Shown: positions 10,579-23,534, counted from the stretch's first letter. The stretch is DNA of 53,079 nt from an uncultured Spirochaetales bacterium (GCA_964606455.1 CAZSGZ010000001.1:1-53079); one strand, 5' to 3'. Numbers and translations are program-made. The notes: generated by a model from the letters alone, not told the origin.

Positions 10579-11319
10579 ATGAGCGACACAGCAGATAATG
10601 CCGCTACCGCCGCTGAAAATACAGGCGGAGGGGCCGGGTCAGGGACATCTTCAATTAGAAGAAGTTCTTCAAGTTCGAGGAGCAAGAAGAAGAAGAAAAA
10701 TCAGCTTCCCTTCGGCTTTTTGTCTTTCATCGTTCTTATTGCCGTCGGAATCCTGCTGCTGACCTTTTCCCAGCAGCTTGGTCTTTTTTGGTTTCTCGGT
10801 CTTGCCTTCGGGTTCATCCTGCAGAAGGCCCGTTTCTGTTTCACGGCCTCACTGCGTGATCCGTATTTAACCGGAGGTACAAACCTTACAAAGGCGGTAC
10901 TCATTGCCTTCGCGATTACGTCAATTGGTTTTACGGCCATAAAGTACGGTGCGGCATCGAGGGGACTGCCGATTCCCGGCATGAGCTATGTCGTTCCCGT
11001 AAGCGGAGCTACGGCTGTCGGCGCCTTTATGTTCGGAATCGGAATGGTTATTTCCGGAGGATGCGCGTCGGGAACGCTCATGCGTGTGGGGGAGGGCTTT
11101 ACCATGCAGATGCTTTCCATTGTCTTTTTTATTGCGGGTTCCCTGTGGGGGGCGCATGACTTTGGTTTTTGGAAATATAACGTCATCTTGCGGGGCAAAG
11201 CGGTCTTCCTTCCGGATGTTTTCGGCTGGATGGGGGCGATTGCAATTCAGCTTGTATTTATTGCCTTCCTTTTTGTTATGGCCGACAGGTGGGCAAACAG
11301 AAAACAACAGGAAAGTTAA
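10579..11319 (+). CDS. YeeE/YedE-family sulfur (thiosulfate) transporter, N-terminal half, with Ser/Lys-rich N-terminal extension
   Basis: Polytopic membrane protein. Conserved Cys motifs are ARFCFTA and SGGCASGTLMR. SD AAGGAG lies 7 nt upstream of the start. Confidence 0.85.
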   Translation: MSDTADNAATAAENTGGGAGSGTSSIRRSSSSSRSKKKKKNQLPFGFLSFIVLIAVGILLLTFSQQLGLFWFLGLAFGFILQKARFCFTASLRDPYLTGGTNLTKAVLIAFAITSIGFTAIKYGAASRGLPIPGMSYVVPVSGATAVGAFMFGIGMVISGGCASGTLMRVGEGFTMQMLSIVFFIAGSLWGAHDFGFWKYNVILRGKAVFLPDVFGWMGAIAIQLVFIAFLFVMADRWANRKQQES

Positions 11320-11361
11320 TAAAGTATTATTAATAAAAATTTTTAGTAGAAGGAGAAAAAA

Positions 11362-11589
11362 ATGGCAGAATTTGAACTTGATTGCTACGGCGAAGCTTGT
11401 CCGGTACCGTTGGTAAAGGCGCAGAACAAACTAAAGGAAATGGCTGTTAATGATGTTCTTATTGTACAGATCGATCACAGCTGTGCCATGAAAAATGTAC
11501 CTGAATGGGCGCGAAAAGAGGGACACAACGTCGAAGTTGAAGAAATTGATGACGGCGAATGGGAAGTTATCATCGAAAAACTGAAATAA
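11362..11589 (+). CDS. TusA/YeeD-like sulfurtransferase (SirA family)
   Basis: 75 aa. The active-site CPxP motif (GEACPVPLVKA) is near the N-terminus. Strong SD GAAGGAGA. Confidence 0.88.
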   Translation: MAEFELDCYGEACPVPLVKAQNKLKEMAVNDVLIVQIDHSCAMKNVPEWARKEGHNVEVEEIDDGEWEVIIEKLK

Positions 11590-11607
11590 CAATCGGGAGG
11601 TCCGATT

Positions 11608-12141
11608 TTGAAAATTCGGGAAACGAAATTCTATAATGAATGGTTTAAGCAGGCGTGGCCCTATGTAACCGGGGCGGTTTTGCTCTCTTTGTTTCAAATT
11701 GTGACCCTGGCAAGTACCGGAAATCCATGGGGGGTTTCCGGTGTTTTCGCCAATTGGGGGGCATGGATCTACCGTGCATTCGGCGGCTCAGTCGATAAAT
11801 GGTATTATTTTGCAAGCGACGGGGCCCAGGCAACACTCAATGCCGGTTTTCTTCGTGACCCAGGCACAATGCGAAATTTAGGGATAATTTTCGGCGCCCT
11901 CATGGCTACGCTTTTAGCATCTCAGTTTAAGATTAAAAAATTGAAATCCTGGAAACAGGTAATTGCGGCCGTATTAGGCGGACTGCTGATGGGCTACGGG
12001 GCAAGGATCGGGTTCGGTTGTAATATCGGTGCTCTTTACAGCGGTATTTCATCACTTTCTCTTTCCGGATGGGCTTACGCCCTCTTCCTGTTTCTTGGAG
12101 CGATAATCGGCAGCAAACTGCTGGTTAAATATTTTATGTAA
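11608..12141 (+). CDS. YeeE/YedE-family sulfur transporter, C-terminal half
   Basis: 177-aa membrane protein with the GFGCNIGALYSG motif. TTG start at 11608 follows SD GGGAGG (11595-11600). Confidence 0.82.
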   Translation: MKIRETKFYNEWFKQAWPYVTGAVLLSLFQIVTLASTGNPWGVSGVFANWGAWIYRAFGGSVDKWYYFASDGAQATLNAGFLRDPGTMRNLGIIFGALMATLLASQFKIKKLKSWKQVIAAVLGGLLMGYGARIGFGCNIGALYSGISSLSLSGWAYALFLFLGAIIGSKLLVKYFM

Positions 12142-12158
12142 CGAAAGCGGAGTTAAAA

Positions 12159-13394
12159 ATGGCACGAGAAAAAAAAGTTGAACAGTACGATGTTGTGATA
12201 ATCGGCGGCGGCGCCGGCGGACTTACCGCCGGAATTTACTGCGGCCGGGCACAGCTGAAAACAATTATTATTGAAAAAGCGCTGGTAGGAGGTCTTGCCA
12301 CCTACACGAACGAGATTGAAAACTATCCGGGTTTTCCGGAAGGGTCCACCGGTCTCGGCCTTATGGAGCTTTTTCAGAAGCAGGCAAAAAAATTCGGCGT
12401 CGATTTCAAATTGACGGACGTTAAAACCGTCGATCTTAAAGGTGAAGTAAAGGTTGTCGAAACTTTCCGGAACCGGTACGAGGCAAAGGTAGTAATTATA
12501 GCTACCGGCGGACGGCCCCGGGTTACCAATGCCCAGGATGAGGAGAAATATCTCTTTGACAAGGGTATTTCTTTCTGCGCCACGTGCGACGCCGCGGCGA
12601 ATACGGGAAAAGAGGTTATGGTCATCGGTTCAGGTGACGCCGCGATTGAAGAAGGAATGTTCCTGACGAAGTTCGCGAAAAAGGTGTACGTTTCCGTTAT
12701 GCACGACACCGGTAAAATGGACTGTAACGAAATTGCGCGGGACGAGGCGTTAAAAAACGAGAAGATGGAATTTCTCTGGAATACCGTGGTACAACGGTTT
12801 GAAGGGGAAGACCACCTGGAACGGGTAGTACTGAAAAACCTTAAAACCGGCAACGAGGAACCCGTTACCGTCGACACATGTTTTGAGTTTATCGGATATC
12901 TTCCCAACTCGGAACTGCTCGAAGGACAGGTAAACATTACCGAAAAAGGATATGTCGAGGTCAACGAGCGGATGGAAACCAACGTCGAAGGTGTTTTCTC
13001 CGTAGGCGATATTAACGATAAATTTTTAAAACAGGTCGCGACGGCTGTCGGTGACGGAGCGATCGCGGGATACGGAGCCGAAAAATACATCGCGGAAACC
13101 GAGGTTTTTCACAGTCAGGTTATGCGGCATGACATGCCCGTGGCGGCATTTGTTTTCGATGCATCATGTTCTAACTGCAGGGAAAAGCTGCCCGTAATGG
13201 AATATGTGGAGAAAGAAAGCAACGGACGCTACAAGGTCGTGAAAATCGATGTGTACAAGTCGAGAGGCTTAGCAGACCGACTAAAAATTAAAAAGTTCCC
13301 CACCGTAGCGATTATTAAAGACGGTCAAATAGAAACAATCATCGAAGACAAGAACATCACGGAATCATCCGTGCTTTCCAAACTATTAGCGTAA
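12159..13394 (+). CDS. Thioredoxin-reductase-like flavoprotein fused to a C-terminal thioredoxin-fold domain
   Basis: FAD motif IIGGGAGGLTAG, redox CATC (FCATCDA), second dinucleotide motif GSGDAAIEEG, GD motif FSVGD. The C-terminal ~100 aa has Trx-like CSNC and FPTVAIIKDG. Confidence 0.85.
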   Translation: MAREKKVEQYDVVIIGGGAGGLTAGIYCGRAQLKTIIIEKALVGGLATYTNEIENYPGFPEGSTGLGLMELFQKQAKKFGVDFKLTDVKTVDLKGEVKVVETFRNRYEAKVVIIATGGRPRVTNAQDEEKYLFDKGISFCATCDAAANTGKEVMVIGSGDAAIEEGMFLTKFAKKVYVSVMHDTGKMDCNEIARDEALKNEKMEFLWNTVVQRFEGEDHLERVVLKNLKTGNEEPVTVDTCFEFIGYLPNSELLEGQVNITEKGYVEVNERMETNVEGVFSVGDINDKFLKQVATAVGDGAIAGYGAEKYIAETEVFHSQVMRHDMPVAAFVFDASCSNCREKLPVMEYVEKESNGRYKVVKIDVYKSRGLADRLKIKKFPTVAIIKDGQIETIIEDKNITESSVLSKLLA

Positions 13395-13404
13395 AAAAGA
13401 GAAT

Positions 13405-13444
13405 AAAAAAAAAAGACCCCGAGAAATCGGGGTCTTTTTTTTTA
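13405..13444. terminator. Bidirectional rho-independent terminator between convergent operons
   Basis: 9-bp stem AGACCCCGA(13414-13422)/TCGGGGTCT(13427-13435) with a GAAA tetraloop, flanked by an A10 run upstream and a T9 run downstream. Confidence 0.9.
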
Positions 13445-13456
13445 TCTTCCAGGTTA

Positions 13457-14440
13457 CTATTGGACCACTTCGTAGCCTGCGTTTTTCCAGCCTAAGGGAT
13501 CGTTTGACGGCATCCCAATACCGCCCCGCAAACTGACGGCGTCGTAGCCTAAGAGCCGCAGGCCCGCAACGGTCTGTCCCGCAGTCTGTCCGGTGTAGCA
13601 GTAGGTGATAATTTTTTTGTCCTTCGGCAGGGAGCTGAAAGACTGTTCCATGCCCGCGCCCCATGGAATATTCGAGGCACCGGGAATGTGGCCTTCACCG
13701 TAATGTTGAGCGCTCCGGATTGAAAGGATGTACACATCCTCGTCTTCATCGATCAGTTTTTTCAAGTTGTCTTCACTAATCATGTAATTTTTATAAATCG
13801 TGTCAGCGACTGCTGAAAAACCGGTGTAGTATTCTTTAATTGCCGAAAGAATGTCGGGGTGAATATTCGATCCTTCCGCGGGAAAATCATTCGGTGTTGT
13901 TTCAGTAATGGCTTCATACCCGTCGGCCCTTGAAATACCGTACACCCAGCCGAGATTCACGGAGTAAGCTTCGAAACCGGCAAGGTTCAAGAGCATGACG
14001 GTCTGTCCAGCGGTTTGCCCCGAATAGCAGTATACGTATACGGGCTTGCCGGAGGGGATCTTCGCGAATGCATCGCCTAAGGAAGGACCCCAGGACGCTA
14101 AGACAGCGCCTTTTGCGTGCCCTTTGTCGTACACATCCTGCTGCCGTATGTCGAGAATGAACATATCGTCGCCGTTTTTGACCTTTTCAATAAAATCTTT
14201 CTCGGGGATCTTGTAGTTGTGTCCCGGTTTGTTGGCGAAATATTCCATGACCCCTTCTTCGACGGGGTCTAACTGCGGTGCAGGTTCCTGCTCCGGCGCT
14301 TTTTCAGCCGTGCTTGCCGACTCCTCTTTTGTTTCCGTACCGGCCGCCGCTTTTTCTTCTTTATCACATGCAACGAAGAAAAGTGCGAAGGCGATCATGA
14401 GTACGGTAAGAAGAACTAATAATTTGTTCTTTTTAAACAT
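13457..14440 (-). CDS. Exported tandem-rhodanese lipoprotein (two catalytic rhodanese domains)
   Basis: Signal peptide plus lipobox (LFFVAC). Two active-site loops, VYCYSGQTAGQ and TYCYTGQTAGQ. Start set at MFKKNK (ATG 14440), with GGAGG 11 nt upstream. Confidence 0.8.
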   Translation of the reverse strand: MFKKNKLLVLLTVLMIAFALFFVACDKEEKAAAGTETKEESASTAEKAPEQEPAPQLDPVEEGVMEYFANKPGHNYKIPEKDFIEKVKNGDDMFILDIRQQDVYDKGHAKGAVLASWGPSLGDAFAKIPSGKPVYVYCYSGQTAGQTVMLLNLAGFEAYSVNLGWVYGISRADGYEAITETTPNDFPAEGSNIHPDILSAIKEYYTGFSAVADTIYKNYMISEDNLKKLIDEDEDVYILSIRSAQHYGEGHIPGASNIPWGAGMEQSFSSLPKDKKIITYCYTGQTAGQTVAGLRLLGYDAVSLRGGIGMPSNDPLGWKNAGYEVVQ

Positions 14441-14481
14441 AAAATCTAAAACCTCCATTTATTGATTTCTTATTTGTAGTA

Positions 14482-14557: not shown

Positions 14558-15466
14558 CTATGAACCGTCCTGGACCGTTGCCTGGACCTCTTCTCCCGAT
14601 GCACGGTATACCGGCAGCGAGCTGTCATCGGACCAGCCGAGCCATGCCGCGTCGTAAATTTTCAGGTTAGGATATCCCGCGTTGTACATGGCGAGAAACG
14701 TTTGTGCCGCACGGATCGAGGATTTGCAGTACATAATTGCCGTGTCCTCCGGTTTAATTCCGGCTTCCCGGTACAGGATACGTATCTGCCGTACGGGCCG
14801 GTATGTTCCGTCCTTGAAATTATTTGACGTGTAATTAATGTGAATCGATCCGGGAATCGTACCGTCGGTATATTCTTCCAAAGTACGGGTATCGATAATA
14901 CAGACATCCGGGTCGGGATCGTCGACTTGATTTTTCACGTCCCCCGTGGAGGCGATATATTCCTTATTTTTTACCGATATGGTGAAAGTCGCCGGCGTGG
15001 TGGCGACGCGGTCCGCGTTTGCTGAAAATCCAGCGGCTTCCAGCGCCTCGAGGCCGCCGCTTACAACTTTCGCCTTTGTGTGACCATAGACGAGAAGGGT
15101 CCACCACAGACGGGCGGCGTCCATATTGTTATTGTTGTCGTAAATAATTACCAGGGTTTCGTTGGAAATACCGCGGAGGCCAAGAATTTCCGCAATTTGC
15201 TGCGAAGACGCGAGCATATTCGGATACGGAGTGTTAACAACGATATGGGATCGGCTGATATTGACGGCCCCGTCGATATGTTTTTCCTTATAGTCCGTTG
15301 ACTGTTGTGTATCTACTAAAACGGTGTTAGCCTGTGATAGAAGTGTGGAAACATCTTCGGCGTCGACGATGTATTCTCCTTTCTGTTTTTCAGGATGACA
15401 GCCGATAAGTGCGGCAAATGAAATACTAATCAGTATCAATAAACAAGCACGGGCAATACGCTTCAC
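14558..15466 (-). CDS. Exported two-domain rhodanese (thiosulfate/3-mercaptopyruvate sulfurtransferase-like) lipoprotein
   Basis: GTG start at 15466 follows SD AAGGAGGA. Lipobox ALIGC. SseA-like two-domain layout with the catalytic loop MYCKSSIRAAQ in the C-terminal domain. Confidence 0.8.
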   Translation of the reverse strand: MKRIARACLLILISISFAALIGCHPEKQKGEYIVDAEDVSTLLSQANTVLVDTQQSTDYKEKHIDGAVNISRSHIVVNTPYPNMLASSQQIAEILGLRGISNETLVIIYDNNNNMDAARLWWTLLVYGHTKAKVVSGGLEALEAAGFSANADRVATTPATFTISVKNKEYIASTGDVKNQVDDPDPDVCIIDTRTLEEYTDGTIPGSIHINYTSNNFKDGTYRPVRQIRILYREAGIKPEDTAIMYCKSSIRAAQTFLAMYNAGYPNLKIYDAAWLGWSDDSSLPVYRASGEEVQATVQDGS

Positions 15467-15526: not shown

Positions 15527-17104
15527 ATGGTCAAGTGGCGAAAAGGGCATATAATAATAATCGTTTTCATCATTCTCTACTTTTTTGCTAATCTCCTGTT
15601 TATCGACCGCTTTCCTTTCGTCCATTCCGATGAAACCTGGCTCGCCGGGCTGTCCCGGTATATCCTGCACACGGGGAAACCGGGGCAGACGGAACCGTTT
15701 TTCGATTTGTATGAACGGCATCCCCACGGGCTTCGCGTCCTGTTTCAGGGACTGCAGATCGTAAGTATTAAGCTGTTCGGGTACTCCCTCCGTACCGTCA
15801 GGGGCCTTTCCCTGCTCTTTGCCGCGGCCGCTTTGTATGTGTACTACCGCCTTATTCTCGAAATGAACGGGCGGCGGGGGACAGCGTTTTTTTCCGTGCT
15901 GCTTCTCGCGTTCGGGATACAGTTTCTCTATGCCGGCCGGTTCGGGAGGCAGGAGAGCGTTCTTCTGTTCATTCACCTTCTGTCGCTCTATTTCTTTTTC
16001 AAATCCGTCCGTACCGGGTCAGCGGGGGGTGATGTTCTTGCCGGGACCTGTATTGGTGCCGCAGCGGGGGTACATCCGAACGCGTTCATTTTGCTGCTCC
16101 CTCTGCTGTTCCTGTATGCTTACAGAATCGCGCACTGCAGAGACAAAAAAATCCGAAATTTAATTTATTTTCTTCTTCCCGCCGCCGCCGGTGCCGCCGT
16201 ATTTGTCGGCTTGAGCCTCTATTTTGATCCCCGCTTTGTCCGGCATTACTTTTCCTACGGCAGCACCTTAGGGGTTGATACTTCCCTCTTTACGAAGATA
16301 CGGGCCGTTTCCGATTACTTCTACAAGCTGTTTTTTCAAATAAGCGGTACCTATTACACGCCTTGTATCCGGGTGGAACTGCTTCTCTTCTGCTGCGCCG
16401 GTACCGCGGGCCTCGGGTTTTTTATAGCCGCCCTTGCCGAAGGAAGAAGCACCGGGGACAGATACGCCGTTCCCGCGCAAATATTTCTGGTCCTTTTCGC
16501 GGTACTCGCGGGGATTGTCCTTATCGGCAGATACGGCCAGCCGAGCGTCATTTTCCTGTTTCCCTCGGCCCTGCTGCTCCTCGTGCGCATTCTGTCGATG
16601 CTTCTGAAACGGAAAGCGGTTTTCACGGGACTCCTTATCCTCATGCTGCTGCTGACCGTTGTATCATCAAGCCTGCAGATGCTGCCGTGGCTTGAGAAAA
16701 ACCATTACCGGCAGTACCTCTTAGCAGTAAGCCGGCATGTTCCGGGGGACGCCGTCGTCCTAGCCAATATCAACGCGGAGCCGGCATTTTTGCCGGGGAA
16801 TTTGTACGATTACCGGAACCTAACGTATCTGCGGGAACATGATATCTCCTTTCGGCAGTATATCGAGGAACGGAACATCGAATACATTGTTCTGCCGGAT
16901 GAGATGGAGGTTATTTACAACAGCCGGCCGGTGTGGAACATCATATACGGAAATATATGGCCCTATTATTCAGATATGCTCCGGTTTATTGCCGAAGATG
17001 CCGTGCCGGTCGGTGAGTTTTCCGCACCGGTGTATGCAATGCGGATAGTGCGGTATCAAAATACGGCACCCTGGAAAGTTCGGGTTTACAGGGTTTCTAA
17101 GTAG
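15527..17104 (+). CDS. GT-C fold membrane glycosyltransferase (family 39 / ArnT-PMT-like)
   Basis: 525 aa with about 11-13 hydrophobic helices. An acidic motif sits in the first loop (FVHSDETW) and there is a soluble C-terminal domain. No obvious SD. Confidence 0.6.
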   Translation: MVKWRKGHIIIIVFIILYFFANLLFIDRFPFVHSDETWLAGLSRYILHTGKPGQTEPFFDLYERHPHGLRVLFQGLQIVSIKLFGYSLRTVRGLSLLFAAAALYVYYRLILEMNGRRGTAFFSVLLLAFGIQFLYAGRFGRQESVLLFIHLLSLYFFFKSVRTGSAGGDVLAGTCIGAAAGVHPNAFILLLPLLFLYAYRIAHCRDKKIRNLIYFLLPAAAGAAVFVGLSLYFDPRFVRHYFSYGSTLGVDTSLFTKIRAVSDYFYKLFFQISGTYYTPCIRVELLLFCCAGTAGLGFFIAALAEGRSTGDRYAVPAQIFLVLFAVLAGIVLIGRYGQPSVIFLFPSALLLLVRILSMLLKRKAVFTGLLILMLLLTVVSSSLQMLPWLEKNHYRQYLLAVSRHVPGDAVVLANINAEPAFLPGNLYDYRNLTYLREHDISFRQYIEERNIEYIVLPDEMEVIYNSRPVWNIIYGNIWPYYSDMLRFIAEDAVPVGEFSAPVYAMRIVRYQNTAPWKVRVYRVSK

Positions 17105-19164
17105 GGAATAATGAGATTTTCTCCGGATTCTCCGATAATTTGTAAAACGGTAAAAACCGCGTCGATTTCCCGCCGGAGCGCCTTTCGCGACGAGGCATGG
17201 ACGATGAAAAACCCCGCGCGGGCGGTCGCGTTTTCGGTTTCTCCGATGCTGTCTCCTTCCCTCACGTGAAAGGCGGCGGCAACGACCGCCGGTAATCGGG
17301 TAACCGTCTTAAGCCCCCGCAGCTCCCGTACCGTGCCCGGTTTCGCGAAAAACAGCTGCGCCGACAGAAACATTCCTGGCTCCCTCCAGGTATAGCCGGG
17401 ATATGTTTCAACCCGGAAGGGCCTGCCGAGGACGGCGGAATAATTTGCTTTCAGAATATCGAAGCCGGTGCATACGGGCAGGAAAATTTCCTCATACGCC
17501 CCTCCTATTCGGCAGGCGATTTCGTTTACCCGTAATCCCCCGTCTCCCGTCAGGTACTGGAAGTAAATCGGCCCTTCCCGAATGCGGAATGCCGCGACGA
17601 TGTTGTTTGTAAGTGTTTCAATTTCATCCGCGAGCGCGGGAAGGTATTTGGAGGGGTACATGTGGGCCCTGCAGATACCGATATGGGGCCCCCGTTCAAA
17701 AGTTTCGCGGTCCGTTACCGAGAGGATCCGCGCGTGGCCGTTTGTTACCCAGCCGCTTACGGTAAGTTCATCGCTTGGATAATATTCCTCCACAATGATG
17801 TTCCGCTGCCGCGAGTAGCTGAGTACCTCCTCCATATGGTCCGGCACTTCTTCCGCCGACGAAAGTTTCAGCACCCCCCGCTGTCCCTGGCTGTCCGGTG
17901 GCTTTACGACAAGGGGGGGGCAAAGCTGCCGCAGCATGTCGAGGCAATCTGCGGACCCGGTTTCCACGGGAGAAGGAAGCAGCATCCAGGGGAGTGCCGG
18001 AATATCATTGGCGGCAAAAATGCGCTTCATTCTTCCCTTGTCGGTAACGTTTCGGGCAGTTTCGCTGTCAATGTATGACGGCAAACCGAGTTTTTCGGCA
18101 ACTGCCGCCATGGTAAGGACCGTCTGATCGGTGCCGGTTGTAATTACTCCATCCGGCTTAAGCCAGCTTGCGGCCTCGAGGGTTGCTTCGGGATAAAAGG
18201 CGTCGGCAGTAAGCGACGCGTCGGCGGCGGCCTTTCCCGGGGAAGTTACAAAGTAGTCCGAGGCAATGATAAAGTAGCCGAGCTCCTTTCCCCGCCGGAT
18301 AGGATTGATCTGATTGTTCCCGGAGCCGAGGAAGAGGATTTTTTTTCCCTCCACCGCGGTGTCCGGGGGCCGAGGCGGCAGGACTGTCCGGACGGTAAAC
18401 GGTTTCCCCTTCCGGCGGAAAAGCCGGAATCCGGGAATGCCGCTGTAGTATACGCAGAGGAGAAGAAACAAACGGACAAGCTTTCCAAAGGAGTATCTGC
18501 TCCGCTGCCGTTTCAACGCCGCCGCCGGAAAAGGAGCAGCCAGCGGGACCGACGTAATGTTTTGCGAAAAACGCAGAAGGGCGGCGGTAATGTAAATGAA
18601 GGGCTGTTCCGCCGGGTGTTCCGTAACGATGCGGTGGACGGTACTCCTGCCGGTAAGCCGGAAGCTTCCCGCTTTCACTCCCGGCGGCTTTCCGCAGCAC
18701 CGGGTAAAAAACAGGTCCGCCATGCCGCTCCCGGCTTTTCTAAACCCCTCCCTGAATCCGCGGCGCCGGGAGCCCCGCTGCTCCGGGGGGCTGCCGTATA
18801 TTCCGTACACGGCATCGGCGCCGGTTCGGACCAATTCCCGGTAGAGCCTTCCGATGTCGGCGGGATTGTGCCTAAGGTCGTCGTCGATGGTAGCGGCGTA
18901 TTCCTTGGTAACATACCCGAGACCGCAGAGCAGGGCATTCTGCTGTCCCCGGTTCTCCCCCAGCTTGATGACGGTACAGCAGGGAAGGCGCTCATGCAGC
19001 CGGGACAGAACGGAAAATGAGGCGTCGGTGCTTCCGTCATCTACAAAAATATATTCGTAGTTTTCCGTCAAACAGGGGACGGCTGCCGACAGCGCGGCAA
19101 GGACCGCTTCAATACTGTCGGCGCTGTTGTATACCGGAATAACGACAGAAAGGGAAGGAATCAT
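17086..19164 (-). CDS. Fusion protein: GT2 polyprenol-phosphate glycosyltransferase (GtrB/ArnC/DPM1-like), TM segment(s), ATP-grasp ligase domain
   Basis: The N-terminus has VVIPVYNS...VDDGSTD...IDDDLRHNP. A hydrophobic segment follows (LVRLFLLLCVYYSGIPGF). The C-terminal ~400 aa is ATP-grasp-like (KKILFLGSG...LVVKPPDSQGQRGV...IVEEY...NEIACRIGGA). Confidence 0.75.
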   Translation of the reverse strand: MIPSLSVVIPVYNSADSIEAVLAALSAAVPCLTENYEYIFVDDGSTDASFSVLSRLHERLPCCTVIKLGENRGQQNALLCGLGYVTKEYAATIDDDLRHNPADIGRLYRELVRTGADAVYGIYGSPPEQRGSRRRGFREGFRKAGSGMADLFFTRCCGKPPGVKAGSFRLTGRSTVHRIVTEHPAEQPFIYITAALLRFSQNITSVPLAAPFPAAALKRQRSRYSFGKLVRLFLLLCVYYSGIPGFRLFRRKGKPFTVRTVLPPRPPDTAVEGKKILFLGSGNNQINPIRRGKELGYFIIASDYFVTSPGKAAADASLTADAFYPEATLEAASWLKPDGVITTGTDQTVLTMAAVAEKLGLPSYIDSETARNVTDKGRMKRIFAANDIPALPWMLLPSPVETGSADCLDMLRQLCPPLVVKPPDSQGQRGVLKLSSAEEVPDHMEEVLSYSRQRNIIVEEYYPSDELTVSGWVTNGHARILSVTDRETFERGPHIGICRAHMYPSKYLPALADEIETLTNNIVAAFRIREGPIYFQYLTGDGGLRVNEIACRIGGAYEEIFLPVCTGFDILKANYSAVLGRPFRVETYPGYTWREPGMFLSAQLFFAKPGTVRELRGLKTVTRLPAVVAAAFHVREGDSIGETENATARAGFFIVHASSRKALRREIDAVFTVLQIIGESGENLIIPYLETL

Positions 19165-20354
19165 ATTTTTTTTCGAATAATAAAATTTTCACGTAAAGGT
19201 TTATCCGTTTCGATGTAAAAGTCCCGGCCGTGATGCGCTGCAGCGGTTTCTTCTCCCTCGGCGTCGAAGAGACGGAAGCCGCTGTCGGGAAGCGAGACCA
19301 TATCGGGGCCGATGTACTCGATAGTGTCTCCGGTATATATGCTGTTTTTTACCGAAAGAAGATACCGGCGGTCCCCGCATTGTTTCCGGACGGTCCCCAA
19401 CAGGAGGTGTGTTCTAATATAGGACCTCCTCGCCGGGCGTTCAATTTCATCGGTACCGAAGTAAAACCCCGTCGAATATTCACGGTGGCTGATGTGAAAC
19501 AGTTCTTCCCGGTACGCTTCCAGATCGGGAACGTTCCGGTCGAAAACGACGGAATCGATCATCTTCCGGTATGCCCGGGTAACAACTGCGGTATAGTAGA
19601 CGGATTTCATTCTCCCTTCGATTTTCACCGAATCGAGGCCGCTGTCCCGCAGTTCGGATATGTAATCGATCATGCAGAGGTCTTTCGAGCTTAAAATCGT
19701 GGTATATCCGTCCTCTTCGATTACCGGATAATATTCCCCGGGCCGTTCCGATTCCTCCATCAGCCGGTACTCCCAGCGGCAGGAATGGGCGCAGTCTCCC
19801 GCGTTTCCGGAACGTCCCGCCATATAGGCACTTAAAAAACAGCGTCCCGAGTAGGCAAGGCACATGGCGCCGTGGACAAATCCTTCCAGTTCAACATCCG
19901 GGACGGCGTTTTTTATTGCCTCAATTTCTTTCAGGGAAACTTCCCTTCCGACAATAATTCTCGAAAAACCGAGGTCCCGGTACAGCTTCGCGGCTTCTCC
20001 GTTTACACAGTTTGCCTGGGTGCTTACATGGAGCCGGATGCCGGGAAAATGGTTTTTTAGAAGGGGGACAATGCCGATATCGGAAATAATGAATGCGTCG
20101 AAGGGGTAGGCGGCGATCTCATCCAGGGAAGCCTCGAGTTTCCGCAGGTCATCCTGATGGAAATAAATATTCAAGGCGCAGTAGAGTTTTTTATTTCCCT
20201 TCAAGGCCCTTATCGCGGCGGCGTCGCCCCGTGTAAAATTGTCCGCCTTCGATCGGAGCGAGAAATTGGAAAGACCGATATACGCCGCGTCGGCGCCGTA
20301 GGCGTAGGCGTAATACAGCTTTTCCACATTACCGGCGGGGGACAGCAGTTCCAT
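19161..20354 (-). CDS. Peptidase U32-family protein (RlhA/TrhP/PrtC-like)
   Basis: U32 signature EGFVHGAMCLAYSGRCFLS plus CAHSCRW. Start trimmed to MELLSPAG (ATG 20354). The stop overlaps the start of the downstream GT2 fusion (ATGA). Confidence 0.85.
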   Translation of the reverse strand: MELLSPAGNVEKLYYAYAYGADAAYIGLSNFSLRSKADNFTRGDAAAIRALKGNKKLYCALNIYFHQDDLRKLEASLDEIAAYPFDAFIISDIGIVPLLKNHFPGIRLHVSTQANCVNGEAAKLYRDLGFSRIIVGREVSLKEIEAIKNAVPDVELEGFVHGAMCLAYSGRCFLSAYMAGRSGNAGDCAHSCRWEYRLMEESERPGEYYPVIEEDGYTTILSSKDLCMIDYISELRDSGLDSVKIEGRMKSVYYTAVVTRAYRKMIDSVVFDRNVPDLEAYREELFHISHREYSTGFYFGTDEIERPARRSYIRTHLLLGTVRKQCGDRRYLLSVKNSIYTGDTIEYIGPDMVSLPDSGFRLFDAEGEETAAAHHGRDFYIETDKPLRENFIIRKKI

Positions 20355-20358
20355 TGAA

Positions 20359-21198
20359 TCAGCCGCCCTGCAAAAGCCGTGACGCTTCAAGGGTTTCCCG
20401 GTTCTCGGCAAGGAACTTCAGCATGTGCTGCTGTATTCCCTCGAAGTAGGTCCTTTCGAAGGCCGCGGCTTCCCGGCCGATCCAGCGGTAATGCCATATC
20501 TCATGGATGTATCCCGTCAGCTCTTCCGAATCTTCGGGATAGGAGAGGGAAAAACCGTATTTCCAGGCGTTCTCCCGGAGCCATTTCCCCTCCGGTGTGG
20601 TGCCGAAGGCGGGGGTAATGCTTCCGAAATCCACGGCGGTACCGAGCTGGTGCTGGGACTTCCCCGGTTCCGCCGATTCCCGCCGTGCCTGCTCTTCCCC
20701 GATCGAGGCGACATGATACTGAAATACCTGTTCCTGATAGGCGTAGGAGCGGTAGGCCGAGGAAATAACCAGCCGCAGTCCCTCCTCCGAAGCGTCCCGG
20801 TGCATCTTCAACAGATCGGGAATGCAGATTTTCCGGAGCTGAAGCCCCTCTTTGTTCAAATAGAACCCGTACTCCGCGAGGTCCGTCAGGTCCTCCGGCG
20901 CGTAATCGCCTAAGAGGGGATGCTGCTTATCCACGAGAACGACCTGTTCCCGGGGCAGGGAAAGAATATCTTCCGCGTCTTCAAGAAACTGCCGCGAATT
21001 TTCTACAATCGTCCTCCGGATTTCTTCCGGCAGGTTTTCCGCCAATTCCGCAAGGTCGTCGAGAGACAGTGAAAAACGGGGGTGCACCGGGCCTGCCGGC
21101 TCTGCTTCCGCGGTTCCGCGTTCCTCGCCGGTAACTTCATTTTCCGTGCAAGCGGTAAAAAGCAGAGCAAGTGCAAGAAGTATCAGTATCTGTTTCAA
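20359..21198 (-). CDS. D-alanyl-D-alanine carboxypeptidase, VanY/M15B family lipoprotein
   Basis: Lipobox LLFTAC. M15B motifs SAYRSY, KSQHQLGTAVDF and EIWHYR. TTG start overlaps the lon stop. Confidence 0.8.
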   Translation of the reverse strand: MKQILILLALALLFTACTENEVTGEERGTAEAEPAGPVHPRFSLSLDDLAELAENLPEEIRRTIVENSRQFLEDAEDILSLPREQVVLVDKQHPLLGDYAPEDLTDLAEYGFYLNKEGLQLRKICIPDLLKMHRDASEEGLRLVISSAYRSYAYQEQVFQYHVASIGEEQARRESAEPGKSQHQLGTAVDFGSITPAFGTTPEGKWLRENAWKYGFSLSYPEDSEELTGYIHEIWHYRWIGREAAAFERTYFEGIQQHMLKFLAENRETLEASRLLQGG

Positions 21199-23534
21199 AA
21201 AATAAGCTCCGTTACCTCTTCCATTGTCTCGACGGGATGGAAGGATAACCCCTTTGTAATATATTCCGGGATTTCTTCCAAGTCCCTCATGTTCTGCTTC
21301 GGAATAACAATATCTTTCATTTTGTTTCTTCTCGCTGCAATGGTTTTTTCTTTTAATCCGCCTATTGGCAGTACCTTTCCGGTAAGGGAGAGTTCTCCCG
21401 TCATTGCCAGGCGATATTTGAGCCGTTTGCCCGCCGCAAGGGAGAGAAGGGCGGAGGCCATGGTTATTCCCGCTGAAGGACCGTCCTTCGGCGTTGCACC
21501 CGCGGGAATGTGGAGATGAATGCTGTTTTTTTCGAAGAAGGACTTGTCTACTCCAAAATTGCCCGCAATGTGGCGGACGTAGGTGTAGGCGATATTCGCG
21601 CTTTCCTGCATAACTTCACCCATTTGTCCGGTCAGTTTGAATCCTTCCTTTCCGGGGTTTTCCACTGCTTCGATCAGGAGGGTGTCCCCTCCCAAATTCG
21701 TCCAGGCGAGCCCGACGGCCATCCCCGGTCGGATTGTCCTAATCGTTTCCTCTTCCCTGAACAGGGGCTGTCCGAGATACTCCTGCAGATTGTCGTTTTC
21801 AACGGAAATCGGCGTCTGCTTCCGTCCTAAGACAATATCCTTCGCCAGTTTCCGGTGTATTTTGTCCAGTGCCTTCTCGAAATTCCGCACCCCCGCCTCC
21901 CGGGCGTAATTTCCGGCAATACCGGAGAGGGCGGATTTTTTGTACTTCACGTCCGATCTCCTAAAACCCGCCCGGTCCAGCGACTTCGGTATGAGATATT
22001 TCCGGGCAATTGCTATCTTCTCCTGTTCGATATATCCCGAAAGGCGGATAACCTCCATTCGGTCCAGCAGCGGCCGGGGAATGGAGTCCAAGGTATTCGC
22101 GGTAGCGATAAAAATGATAGTTGAAATATCGAAGGGAAGGTCGAGATAATGGTCCCGGAAACTTACGTTTTGTTCCGGATCCAAGACCTCGAGAAGGGCG
22201 GAGGACGGATCTCCCTGAAAGGAAACACCGAGCTTGTCGATTTCATCGATCATGAACACGGGGTTTCTCGTTTTAACGATTTTCAGTCCCTGGATGATTT
22301 TTCCGGGCATCGCCCCGACATAGGTGCGGCGGTGTCCCTTAATCTCGGCTTCGTCCCGCATCCCGCCGACGGAAAAACGGAAAAATTTCCGGTCCAAAGC
22401 CCGGGCTATCGACTTCCCGACCGAGGTTTTCCCGACACCCGGAGGGCCCACGAGGCAGATAATCGAGCCTTTTGTATCGTCTTTCAGTTTCCGAACGGCA
22501 AGATATTCAACAATCCGGTTCTTTACGTCCTCCAGACCGTAATGATCTTTATCCAGTATTTTTTGCGCCTTTTCCAAATCAATCGCGGTATGTTCCGGCT
22601 CTCCCCAGGGAAGGGTGATAATGGTGTCGAGGTAGTTTCTGGTAACGATAAACTCGGAGGAGTTGGGGTCCATGAGGGAAAATTTATCCAGTTCCCGCTT
22701 TACCTGTTCCTCGGTTTCCTCCTCCAGTTCGAGCTTCTCGATTGCCTCGCTGAACCTTTGGTATTCCGAGCTTTTCGAATCCACCGGCATGCCGAGTTCC
22801 TGTTTAATGGCCTTCAGCTCTTCTTTTAAAAAGTATTCCCGCTGGCTCTTTTCAATCCGTTCATTGATCTGCTTCTGGATCCGCTGCTGAATACGGAGGA
22901 GTTCCTGTTCCTTTTTGATAAAAATGAGCACCTGCTCCATCCGCTGCCGCACATCCATCGTTTCGAGAATTTTCTGCTGTTCATTCCTGTCAATATTGAG
23001 AATTGAAACGATAAAGTCGGCAATTTTACCGGGCTGATCGATATTGACCATATTCAGGCGCATCTCTTCGGAAAAAAGGGGGTTGTTCTCGGAAACCTGT
23101 TTCATTTCGCTGATAAGAGAGCGGGTAAGCGCCTTTACTTCGTCGCCGGTATTGTTCGTTTCCTCGAGGTAGTCCACGATCGCGCTGACGGGGTGTTCCC
23201 TGGAAGCAAACTTCCTAATTTTAAACCGTTTGACCGTCGAGATGAACAGATTATACCCTCCGTCGGGAAGGTTGATCTTCTTGACAATTTTTGCAAGCGT
23301 TCCCACCCGGTAAAGGTCGGTCCCCTCATGTTCGGCGGATTCGGTGTTTTTCAGCAGCACTAAGCCGATCATGCTGCCGCCGGCCATGGCCCGGTCTATT
23401 ACGTGGATATCTTCTTCATCGCTGATCATCAGAGGAGTGAAGAGCCCGGGGAAAATCGGCTTCCCCTGTAACGGGACGATAAATATCTTGTTCGGCAGAA
23501 TCATATCAGCCGGAATAATTTCATTTTTTGCCAT
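21195..23534 (-). CDS. lon: ATP-dependent Lon protease
   Basis: 779 aa. Contains the LON N-domain, Walker A GPPGVGKTS, and the protease Ser motif PKDGPSAGITM. Confidence 0.96.
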   Translation of the reverse strand: MAKNEIIPADMILPNKIFIVPLQGKPIFPGLFTPLMISDEEDIHVIDRAMAGGSMIGLVLLKNTESAEHEGTDLYRVGTLAKIVKKINLPDGGYNLFISTVKRFKIRKFASREHPVSAIVDYLEETNNTGDEVKALTRSLISEMKQVSENNPLFSEEMRLNMVNIDQPGKIADFIVSILNIDRNEQQKILETMDVRQRMEQVLIFIKKEQELLRIQQRIQKQINERIEKSQREYFLKEELKAIKQELGMPVDSKSSEYQRFSEAIEKLELEEETEEQVKRELDKFSLMDPNSSEFIVTRNYLDTIITLPWGEPEHTAIDLEKAQKILDKDHYGLEDVKNRIVEYLAVRKLKDDTKGSIICLVGPPGVGKTSVGKSIARALDRKFFRFSVGGMRDEAEIKGHRRTYVGAMPGKIIQGLKIVKTRNPVFMIDEIDKLGVSFQGDPSSALLEVLDPEQNVSFRDHYLDLPFDISTIIFIATANTLDSIPRPLLDRMEVIRLSGYIEQEKIAIARKYLIPKSLDRAGFRRSDVKYKKSALSGIAGNYAREAGVRNFEKALDKIHRKLAKDIVLGRKQTPISVENDNLQEYLGQPLFREEETIRTIRPGMAVGLAWTNLGGDTLLIEAVENPGKEGFKLTGQMGEVMQESANIAYTYVRHIAGNFGVDKSFFEKNSIHLHIPAGATPKDGPSAGITMASALLSLAAGKRLKYRLAMTGELSLTGKVLPIGGLKEKTIAARRNKMKDIVIPKQNMRDLEEIPEYITKGLSFHPVETMEEVTELIF

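Follow-up and report, generated by a model that had tools for sequence, protein, structure and literature searches.

The stretch of DNA analyzed in this work (hereafter the window; 53,079 nt, with coordinates counted from its first letter) comes from the genome of an uncultured Spirochaetales bacterium (GCA_964606455.1, CAZSGZ010000001.1:1-53079; here genome G000), and the subject is a pair of genes that converge within it. One, on the plus strand, encodes a GT-C glycosyltransferase, and the other, the open reading frame (ORF) 17086..19164 on the minus strand, encodes a 692-aa protein in which a GT2 glycosyltransferase domain is fused to an ATP-grasp ligase domain (Table 1). A preliminary description, made from the sequence alone, had reported that the 525-aa and the 692-aa proteins overlap by 19 nt at their 3' ends; both ORFs and the overlap were confirmed, and a convergent overlap was also present in relatives (19 nt in G001 and 17 nt in G002). 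What had been observed in that description was thus partly confirmed, being real apart from a hydrophobic hairpin placed after the GT2 domain. Judged by gene content across genomes, the two genes are what remains here of a conserved cluster, roughly a dozen genes long, that is common to many anaerobic bacteria. The reasoning of the preliminary description is, for the most part, supported by this comparison of genomes.

The 692-aa protein opens, as had been read from its motifs, as a GT2 of the GtrB/ArnC/DPM1 type. The Pfam family Glycos_transf_2 matches residues 6-138 with 96.8 bits, above its cutoff, and the DDD motif at residues 94-96, the DxD of the GT-A fold, is invariant in 40 aligned sequences. 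ArnC was the top NCBIfam model both for the window protein (residues 3-236, 75.4 bits) and for the stand-alone GT2 of Clostridium sediminicola (142.8 bits). In a sequence search against the PDB, residues 3-237 aligned with the solved ArnC structure 9hwj (E 2.4e-17), the matches being ordered as three ArnC entries (E 2.4e-17 to 3e-16), the entry 4dim (residues 271-677), GtrB, DPMS and two L-amino-acid ligases. When the domain was folded alone, its predicted local distance difference test score (pLDDT) was 93.0 and Foldseek ranks 1-25 were all occupied by ArnC, GtrB and DPMS (E 1e-17 to 2e-11; template modeling score on the GT2 query 0.59-0.74), with other GT2s beginning at E ~1e-9. Sequence and model therefore support a polyprenyl-phosphate type of GT2, similar to ArnC, which would transfer its sugar to a lipid phosphate; an indirect pointer to such a transfer is that its conserved partner is a GT-C, a kind of enzyme that needs a lipid-linked donor.

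The hydrophobic hairpin reported to follow this domain is not there. Only one segment after the GT2 attains a 19-residue Kyte-Doolittle mean of 1.4, and in the AlphaFold2 model the linker consists of a helix of 15 residues (226-240), a helix of 6 residues (244-249) and a strand (258-262), with the ATP-grasp domain starting from about residue 275, that is, one short amphipathic helix and a stub. The amphipathic character comes from Lys and Tyr residues that the helix carries across 40 aligned homologues; several stand-alone GT2s (Acetobacterium type) terminate directly after it, and strongly hydrophobic segments occurred in one of the 15 fused homologues checked, which is the most distant of them (P0032). 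A transmembrane (TM) hairpin in the linker was consequently rejected on hydropathy, on the AlphaFold2 model and on the 40-sequence alignment. The modelled helix is probably an in-plane, peripheral membrane anchor, and the two catalytic domains would then both stay cytoplasmic, where an enzyme that depends on ATP has to be. Just before this helix, the 985-aa GT2-ATP-grasp fusion of Alkalispirochaeta americana (P0133) holds a tandem repeat of ~300 residues rich in Gly, Asn, His and Glu, which was rejected as a domain, being a low-complexity repeat.

The ATP-grasp fold first proposed for the C-terminal part was found by Pfam, by PDB profile search and by Foldseek. ATP-grasp_4 matches residues 417-555 (34.6 bits, Pfam cutoff 27) and LAL_C2 matches residues 605-676 (49.1 bits, Pfam cutoff 29.4), and the family profile retrieved 4dim from the PDB with E 4.4e-40. 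The AlphaFold2 model of the full-length protein (36-row alignment) has a mean pLDDT of 92.4 and a predicted template modeling score (pTM) of 0.91, and its closest folds were 4dim (4.8e-29) followed by the L-amino-acid ligases BL00235 (3vot), RizA (4wd3) and BacD/YwfE (3vmm), with biotin carboxylases, PurK and PurT below them. The family-invariant residues include K421, D424, Q426-G430, E459, E466, H501, E548 and R552, all of them intact in the window protein; K421, E459, E466, E548, R552 and the 422-430 loop, which vary hardly or not at all across the family, are presumably nucleotide- and metal-binding, roles that we assign from general knowledge of ATP-grasp enzymes and not from a superposition of structures. 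Sequence and model together confirm an ATP-grasp domain of the L-amino-acid-ligase type with a LAL_C2 subdomain. The three-domain fold and LAL_C2 are shared with the three ligases named above and with the uncharacterized 4dim (Foldseek E 5e-29 to 3e-23), but identity is only 13-19%, and whereas the known ligases are free-standing enzymes that join two free amino acids, the present domain is fused or adjacent to a membrane-associated GT2, a context that argues for a sugar-linked ligase partner over two free amino acids. A second ATP-grasp class, ~30% identical and with open frames of ~545 aa, occurs at G000:C191:928-2067 and in nearly every related genome, cluster or not.

The convergent partner matches PMT_2 (36.1 bits, cutoff 26.1) and PMT (32.9 bits, cutoff 22.7) in Pfam, has an N-terminal half that reads as polytopic from the sequence and ends in a conserved soluble domain. 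An Asp35-Glu36 motif after the first hydrophobic segment is kept in 66 of 69 orthologues and is invariant in a 44-row alignment; it fits the acidic catalytic motif of the first extracytoplasmic loop, the side of the membrane being predicted. Among 41 related genomes, close GT-C orthologues (35-88% identity, E <= 1e-72) were found only in the seven that hold a close ATP-grasp relative, and in all seven of these spirochaetes the GT-C gene is on the contig of the ATP-grasp gene and convergent with it. The two genes abut in G000, G001 and G002; in G018, G020, G021 and G032, three genes lie between them, encoding an NMT1/SsuA-like binding protein, an ABC permease and an ABC ATPase. Genome G013 has only fragments of both: its locus (L019, G013:C42:44000-54000) is a decayed cluster with a 106-residue GT-C fragment, an ATP-grasp fragment with an internal TAG and an intact ABC trio.

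That the GT2 and the ATP-grasp domain are truly fused, as the preliminary description supposed, is borne out by the recurrence of the fusion. Full-length forms were obtained among the related genomes in G000, G001 (86% identity) and G020 (39%), and in G002, G018, G021 and G032 an ATP-grasp domain 37-41% identical stands beside a separate GT2. A word-indexed protein search returned 15 fused forms of 653-764 aa, an exhaustive search of 1.84 billion protein-cluster representatives returned 21 fused forms among its best 150 matches, and a 672-aa fusion was present in one Halanaerobium metagenome-assembled genome. In a FastTree phylogeny of 112 ATP-grasp domains (31 fused, 80 split and 1 other, with no row dropped), the fused/split label changes nine times, and at least four of these changes are forced by well-supported branches, the supports being local Shimodaira-Hasegawa-like values and not bootstraps. 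By this tree, the fusion has arisen or been broken at least four times. In 67 loci, the gene immediately upstream of the ATP-grasp gene, in the same orientation, is that of the GT2; the two are separated by -56 to +162 nt, and stop-start overlaps between them are common. An assembly or frameshift artefact was rejected, since the fusion recurs in relatives, among the representatives and repeatedly on the tree. Also rejected was the reading of an 842-aa ORF of G020 as a triple fusion with a flippase subunit: its 119-residue N-terminal extension is non-hydrophobic and has no matches, and an ATG at codon 120 starts the GT2. In one further protein (P0154, 734 aa, a singleton), the ATP-grasp domain is joined through one hydrophobic segment to an SsuA-like binding protein 48% identical to that of C. 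sediminicola, which is perhaps the result of reading through from one gene into the next.

With the ATP-grasp alignment as query, one genome of each prokaryote species was scanned; at least 559 relatives were obtained, of which the best 80 were kept, representing 79 loci. One of these belongs to the genus of the window and the other 78 to Bacillota of many families and one Calditrichales, at 41-48% identity; an ATP-grasp ORF was obtained in 77 of the 78, and 52 had at least 6 kb on each side. When the ORFs were labelled by BLASTP, with proteins of the window and of the loci as references, these 52 well-flanked loci contained a rhodanese in every case, a GT2 and a LysR regulator in 51 each, the ABC permease in 50, the binding protein and the GT-C in 49 each, the ABC ATPase in 45, a DegT aminotransferase in 44, TusA in 43, the two halves of a split YeeE in 43 and 44, and a TrxR-Trx fusion and an RmlB-like dehydratase in 24 each, with ArnE/F-like, U32 and VanY genes in none (0/52). 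The earlier view of the GT-C as the partner of the GT2 is supported by this synteny, in the seven spirochaetes as in the 49 loci from Bacillota and Calditrichota. Pfam typing of the C. sediminicola locus (L072) confirmed each cluster label. As typed from its genes, the cluster is composed of a LysR regulator, a split YeeE with TusA, a dTDP-4-amino-4,6-dideoxyhexose aminotransferase, the GT2, the ATP-grasp ligase, an SsuA-like ABC importer, the GT-C and exported rhodaneses. It spans monoderm Bacillota, diderm Halanaerobiales, Calditrichota and Spirochaetota, and Halanaerobium congolense and H. saccharolyticum carry it whole.

The most faithful companion in the cluster is the Rhod2 type of rhodanese (50 of the 52 loci), the Rhod1 type being present in 35, and a crude lipobox pattern was found in 85 of 114 rhodaneses and in 52 of 67 binding proteins. 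The cluster rhodaneses weakly match the NCBIfam family rhoda_near_glyco. A complex prediction for the GT-C with residues 60-333 of Rhod2 (own alignments, no controls) scored 0.00 and has no bearing either way. The NCBIfam model that the cluster LysR genes (for instance L072:6880-7776) match best is the selenium metabolism-associated LysR, with 189 bits against a cutoff of 250. In the full-text literature, no description was found of this cluster or of an ATP-grasp enzyme acting on 4-amino-6-deoxy sugars, and the cluster is apparently undescribed so far. The passage of Lin et al. 2015 (PMC5322559) that concerns YedE places an unnamed glycosyltransferase among its STRING partners, in one organism.

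Of the cluster, the window has kept only the YeeE/TusA/TrxR operon, the two rhodanese genes, the gene of the GT-C and that of the fused GT2 and ligase (Table 1). The stretch 19161-23534 (minus strand) contains a U32/TrhP-like gene, whose end overlaps the start of the fusion gene by 4 nt, and the VanY and Lon genes that precede it. These three adjoin the fusion only in G000 and G001, which are of the same genus, and they were rejected as members of the system, given this restriction and the absence of U32 and VanY from the loci elsewhere. The ABC trio of G000, an SsuA-like lipoprotein, a permease and an ATPase, was found on two small contigs that overlap end to end, namely C212 (L020:1-702, minus strand) and C401 (L021:1-1705). 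The binding protein of this trio shares 58% identity with that of G018. A 492-aa open-ended, AMP-binding-type ORF (untyped) stands divergently beside this trio.

Table 1. Position of the gene pair and of the surrounding features in the window.
Feature	Position	Strand	Basis or remark
Split YeeE/YedE, N-half	10579-11319	+	
TusA-like	11362-11589	+	
YeeE, C-half	11608-12141	+	
TrxR-Trx fusion	12159-13394	+	YeeE/TusA/TrxR block, 10579..13394
Strong terminator-like hairpin, 17 pairs, A and T runs on flanks	13406..13443	.	Between convergent TrxR-Trx and Rhod2 genes
Tandem-rhodanese lipoprotein, Rhod2 type	13457..14458	-	
Tandem-rhodanese lipoprotein, Rhod1 type	14558..15466	-	Divergent from GT-C across a 60-nt spacer
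GT-C glycosyltransferase, PMT_2/ArnT-like, 525 aa	15527..17104	+	ORF, Pfam, orthologues
Overlap of the two convergent 3' ends, 19 nt	17086..17104	.	ORF calling
ATP-grasp ligase domain, residues 268-692 and stop codon, L-amino-acid-ligase type with LAL_C2	17086..18363	-	Pfam, PDB, Foldseek
Linker of fusion, residues 226-267: amphipathic helix, short helix, strand	18364..18489	-	Hydropathy, model, alignment
GT2 domain of fusion, residues 1-225, polyprenyl-phosphate type closest to ArnC	18490..19164	-	Pfam, NCBIfam, PDB, Foldseek

Clues to the chemistry are found in the conserved neighbours. The three aminotransferases tested, of G018, C. sediminicola and H. congolense, scored 440, 475 and 495 bits on the dTDP-4-amino-4,6-dideoxygalactose transaminase model (cutoff 375), and the Halanaerobium dehydratase exceeds the cutoff for dTDP-glucose 4,6-dehydratase. 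Since these enzymes pass curated cutoffs, the sugar of the pathway is most likely a 4-amino-4,6-dideoxyhexose. The presence of a 4-aminotransferase in 44 of the 52 clusters would make an amine available for a carboxylate-amine ligase, and therefore amide tailoring before flipping is the most economical reading. The natural donor of ArnC is a 4-formamido (4-acylamido) sugar, and because ArnC is the nearest relative of the GT2, acylation first and loading onto undecaprenyl phosphate afterwards would be, by analogy, an attractive order.

Concerning the acid, the best family for the cluster binding protein is SsuA (82-86 bits), and its sole PDB match is SsuA of E. coli. In a 674-aa protein (P0197), the (2R)-phospho-3-sulfolactate synthase ComA (260.6 bits) is fused to a member of this ATP-grasp family 33% identical to the window domain. 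An ATP-grasp gene of the ComA-fusion branch adjoins a GT2 in one metagenomic locus (L106), and in another (L107:10-9524) the genes that come after it encode a sulfotransferase, an LPG_synthase_TM protein, a DegT aminotransferase and two TPR-tailed GT-Cs of the PMT_2 family, so that L107, as typed, is the same quartet in a second, rhodanese-free context. No ComA was detected among the 41 related genomes, where controls were detected, or in the retrieved loci; endogenous synthesis of sulfolactate was rejected for this reason, and the result in the relatives agrees with an acid that is taken up instead of being synthesized. Taken together, these observations hint at a sulfonated, imported acid but do not prove it.

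The best-known system for comparison is the Arn pathway (ArnB aminotransferase, ArnA formyltransferase, ArnC, ArnE/F and ArnT). Both use a DegT-family 4-aminotransferase; ArnC is the best relative of the cluster GT2 by sequence and fold; ArnE/F are the best models for small membrane genes upstream of the GT2 in G020, G021 and G032; and ArnT is the only NCBIfam match of a cluster GT-C. The logic would also be alike: N-acylation of a 4-amino sugar, its attachment to undecaprenyl phosphate, flipping and transfer on the outside. However, no cluster score comes near the equivalog cutoffs, the aminotransferase is of the WecE type, acting on a dTDP-6-deoxyhexose instead of the UDP-arabinose of Arn, the ATP-grasp ligase occupies the place of the formyltransferase, the GT2 lacks two TM helices, and the cluster carries an ABC importer and rhodaneses and is present also in monoderms, which have no lipid A. 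No ArnA-type formyltransferase/decarboxylase or ArnD deformylase was found among the Pfam- and NCBIfam-typed conserved members of the cluster, no genome-wide search for them having been made. From these comparisons, the cluster appears to work like the Arn pathway and yet does not qualify as a member of it.

In the preliminary description, the architecture had not been recognized from characterized systems. As described in the passages on Cj1438 from the HS:2 capsule of Campylobacter jejuni (PMC11800379), a functional precedent exists: one polypeptide with an N-terminal GT2 and a C-terminal ATP-grasp domain makes an amide on a sugar, and glycosyl transfer needs the amide to be made first. Its domains, nevertheless, belong to other subfamilies. 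According to the same passages, the GT2 of Cj1438 is a soluble polymerizing enzyme, likened to TarS, and not a polyprenyl-phosphate glycosyltransferase, its ATP-grasp domain is TupA-like with a 127-residue linker domain, and it amidates the carboxylate of glucuronate with serinol phosphate or ethanolamine phosphate, with no GT-C involved (PMC11800379). The window protein is outside this type, having no TupA-like Pfam match and lipid-phosphate glycosyltransferases as the nearest folds of its GT2, Cj1438 being compared by description only. On the sulfur side, the presence of split YeeE, TusA and rhodanese genes in one cluster resembles the YeeE(TsuA)/YeeD(TsuB) system of thiosulfate uptake. Rhodaneses of Halanaerobium have been reported to rise with thiosulfate (PMC5497025), and the passages of that work on these proteins contain no mention of glycosylation genes beside them.

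Therefore, we hypothesize that the two genes are the core of an Arn-like, three-compartment glycosylation route. The domains and their folds, the recurrent fusion, the synteny and the make-up of the cluster are demonstrated here; the substrates, all of them, the sequence in which ligase and GT2 act and the acceptor are what we infer. A nucleotide-activated 4-amino-4,6-dideoxyhexose would be made first, by a WecE-type aminotransferase whose gene adjoins the GT2 in most clusters. The ATP-grasp domain would then amidate the sugar, most likely by activating an acid as acyl phosphate and joining it to the C4 amine, an acylation in the role that N-formylation has before ArnC. The acid is possibly sulfonated (cysteate, sulfolactate) and could be brought in by the SsuA-like ABC importer of the cluster. 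The GT2, held on the inner face of the membrane by the amphipathic helix, would load the sugar onto undecaprenyl phosphate; the lipid-linked sugar would be flipped, for which some spirochaete clusters offer ArnE/F-like genes; and the convergent GT-C would pass it to an acceptor outside the cytoplasmic membrane. This acceptor is probably the exported rhodanese lipoproteins, or an envelope component working with them on thiosulfate-type sulfur, which we favor because rhodaneses accompany the cluster everywhere, across phyla with different envelopes. Such a lipid-linked amino-sugar route, with the sugar amide-acylated by the ATP-grasp enzyme and functionally tied to extracytoplasmic sulfur transfer, has in our judgement somewhat better than an even chance of being correct. 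A more specific form of it, speculative and on the whole unlikely, is a new kind of surface glycoconjugate in which a 4-amino-4,6-dideoxyhexose carries an amide-linked sulfonated or thiol acid (e.g., cysteate, sulfolactate or cysteine) and is delivered by undecaprenyl phosphate and the GT-C onto or near the rhodanese lipoproteins. In fermentative anaerobes such as Halanaerobium, this sugar would then be the missing extracytoplasmic partner in the processing of thiosulfate or selenium, be it as acceptor, as cofactor or as charge shield. In mycothiol and bacillithiol, cysteine is amide-linked to an amino sugar, and the cysteine case would resemble them.

Several observations weigh against this route. 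The fusion GT2 is far below the cutoff of the ArnC equivalog NF007986 (75.4 vs 529 bits) and does not have the pair of C-terminal TM helices found in ArnC and GtrB; some polyprenyl-phosphate GT2 members, such as human DPM1, are also devoid of TM helices. The binding protein stays below the SsuA cutoff (82-86 vs 163.5 bits), and the ComA fusion (P0197) and the fusion of ATP-grasp to a binding protein (P0154) are singletons, each from one assembly. Eight of the 52 loci, most of them of the Acetobacterium/Eubacteriaceae type, have no DegT gene. The cluster is reduced in G000, where the locus is devoid of aminotransferase, importer and flippase; neither a cluster-linked aminotransferase nor an ArnE/F-like flippase was found in that genome (96.5% complete, 426 contigs), ArnE/F models match nothing in it, and its two DegT homologues, located elsewhere, are 28-32% identical to the cluster type, one of them being in another sugar pathway. 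The absent parts may be unassembled. As regards the conservation, the query has at least 559 relatives, and the 78 loci represent those closest to it; they include many Halanaerobium and are not independent samples, and more distant ATP-grasp members have other gene contexts. The chalcogen handled could be selenium, given the best model of the LysR, and co-location with sulfur genes could mean shared regulation and not shared chemistry.

This last point leads to the alternative that the pathway is a general modification of the envelope (lipid A, teichoic acid or a lipid) mechanistically unrelated to sulfur, with the sulfur genes as neighbours by shared regulation or by hitch-hiking in a mobile block. 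It is textbook knowledge that GT2 and GT-C pairs such as Arn, Gtr and CsbB/YfhO decorate envelope polymers, and the window ATP-grasp domain resembles its Bacillota counterparts (41-48%) no less than those from other spirochaetes (37-41%), suggesting movement of the block between phyla. However, there is no one envelope polymer that monoderm Bacillota, diderm Halanaerobiales, Calditrichota and Spirochaetota have in common, a rhodanese accompanied the ligase in all 52 loci, and the genes of rhodanese and GT-C lie next to each other in divergent orientation, which makes this explanation decidedly unlikely. It is also conceivable that the sugar is a uronic acid, whose carboxylate the ATP-grasp domain would join to an imported amine such as taurine, the GT2 and the GT-C then delivering a uronamide. 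The characterized fusion of GT2 and ATP-grasp does so on glucuronate (PMC11800379), and the binding protein matches taurine-binding models as well, more weakly (39 bits). We consider this improbable, since the Pfam- and NCBIfam-typed conserved members include no sugar dehydrogenase and a 4-aminotransferase is found instead in 44 of the 52 loci, the ATP-grasp domain is of the LAL type and not TupA-like, and the GT2 is closest to ArnC, which uses a 4-acylamido sugar. An equally slim chance is left to a ligase that supplies the rhodanese/YeeE system with a free small molecule, such as a dipeptide or an amide bearing a thiol or a sulfonate, and is merely co-regulated with, or scaffolded on, a GT2 that glycosylates ordinarily with the GT-C: the nearest characterized folds are free L-amino-acid ligases and the sulfur genes are the most constant neighbours, but at least four independent fusion or fission events with the GT2, the common stop-start overlaps, the rigid full-length model (pTM 0.91) and the recurrence of the quartet without rhodaneses in L107 speak against it.

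If the Arn-like route with an amide-acylated amino sugar is true, an ATP-grasp tailoring step would be added to the schemes of lipid-linked (Arn/Gtr-type) glycosylation, and the modification of the envelope would be new and widespread, the ligase having at least 559 relatives in one species-level genome collection. The repeated fusion serves as a 'Rosetta stone' for the function of an anonymous ATP-grasp family, whose solved member 4dim is mis-named. The combination of rhodaneses with thiosulfate-type and sulfonate-type importers provides a testable lead on extracytoplasmic thiosulfate handling in fermentative anaerobes, among which Halanaerobium is described as souring shale gas wells (PMC5497025), and cultured carriers are at hand in H. 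congolense DSM 11287, C. sediminicola, Acetobacterium bakii and Geosporobacter ferrireducens. If the surface-glycoconjugate form of the hypothesis is true, envelope glycosylation would be directly coupled to chalcogen metabolism in these bacteria.

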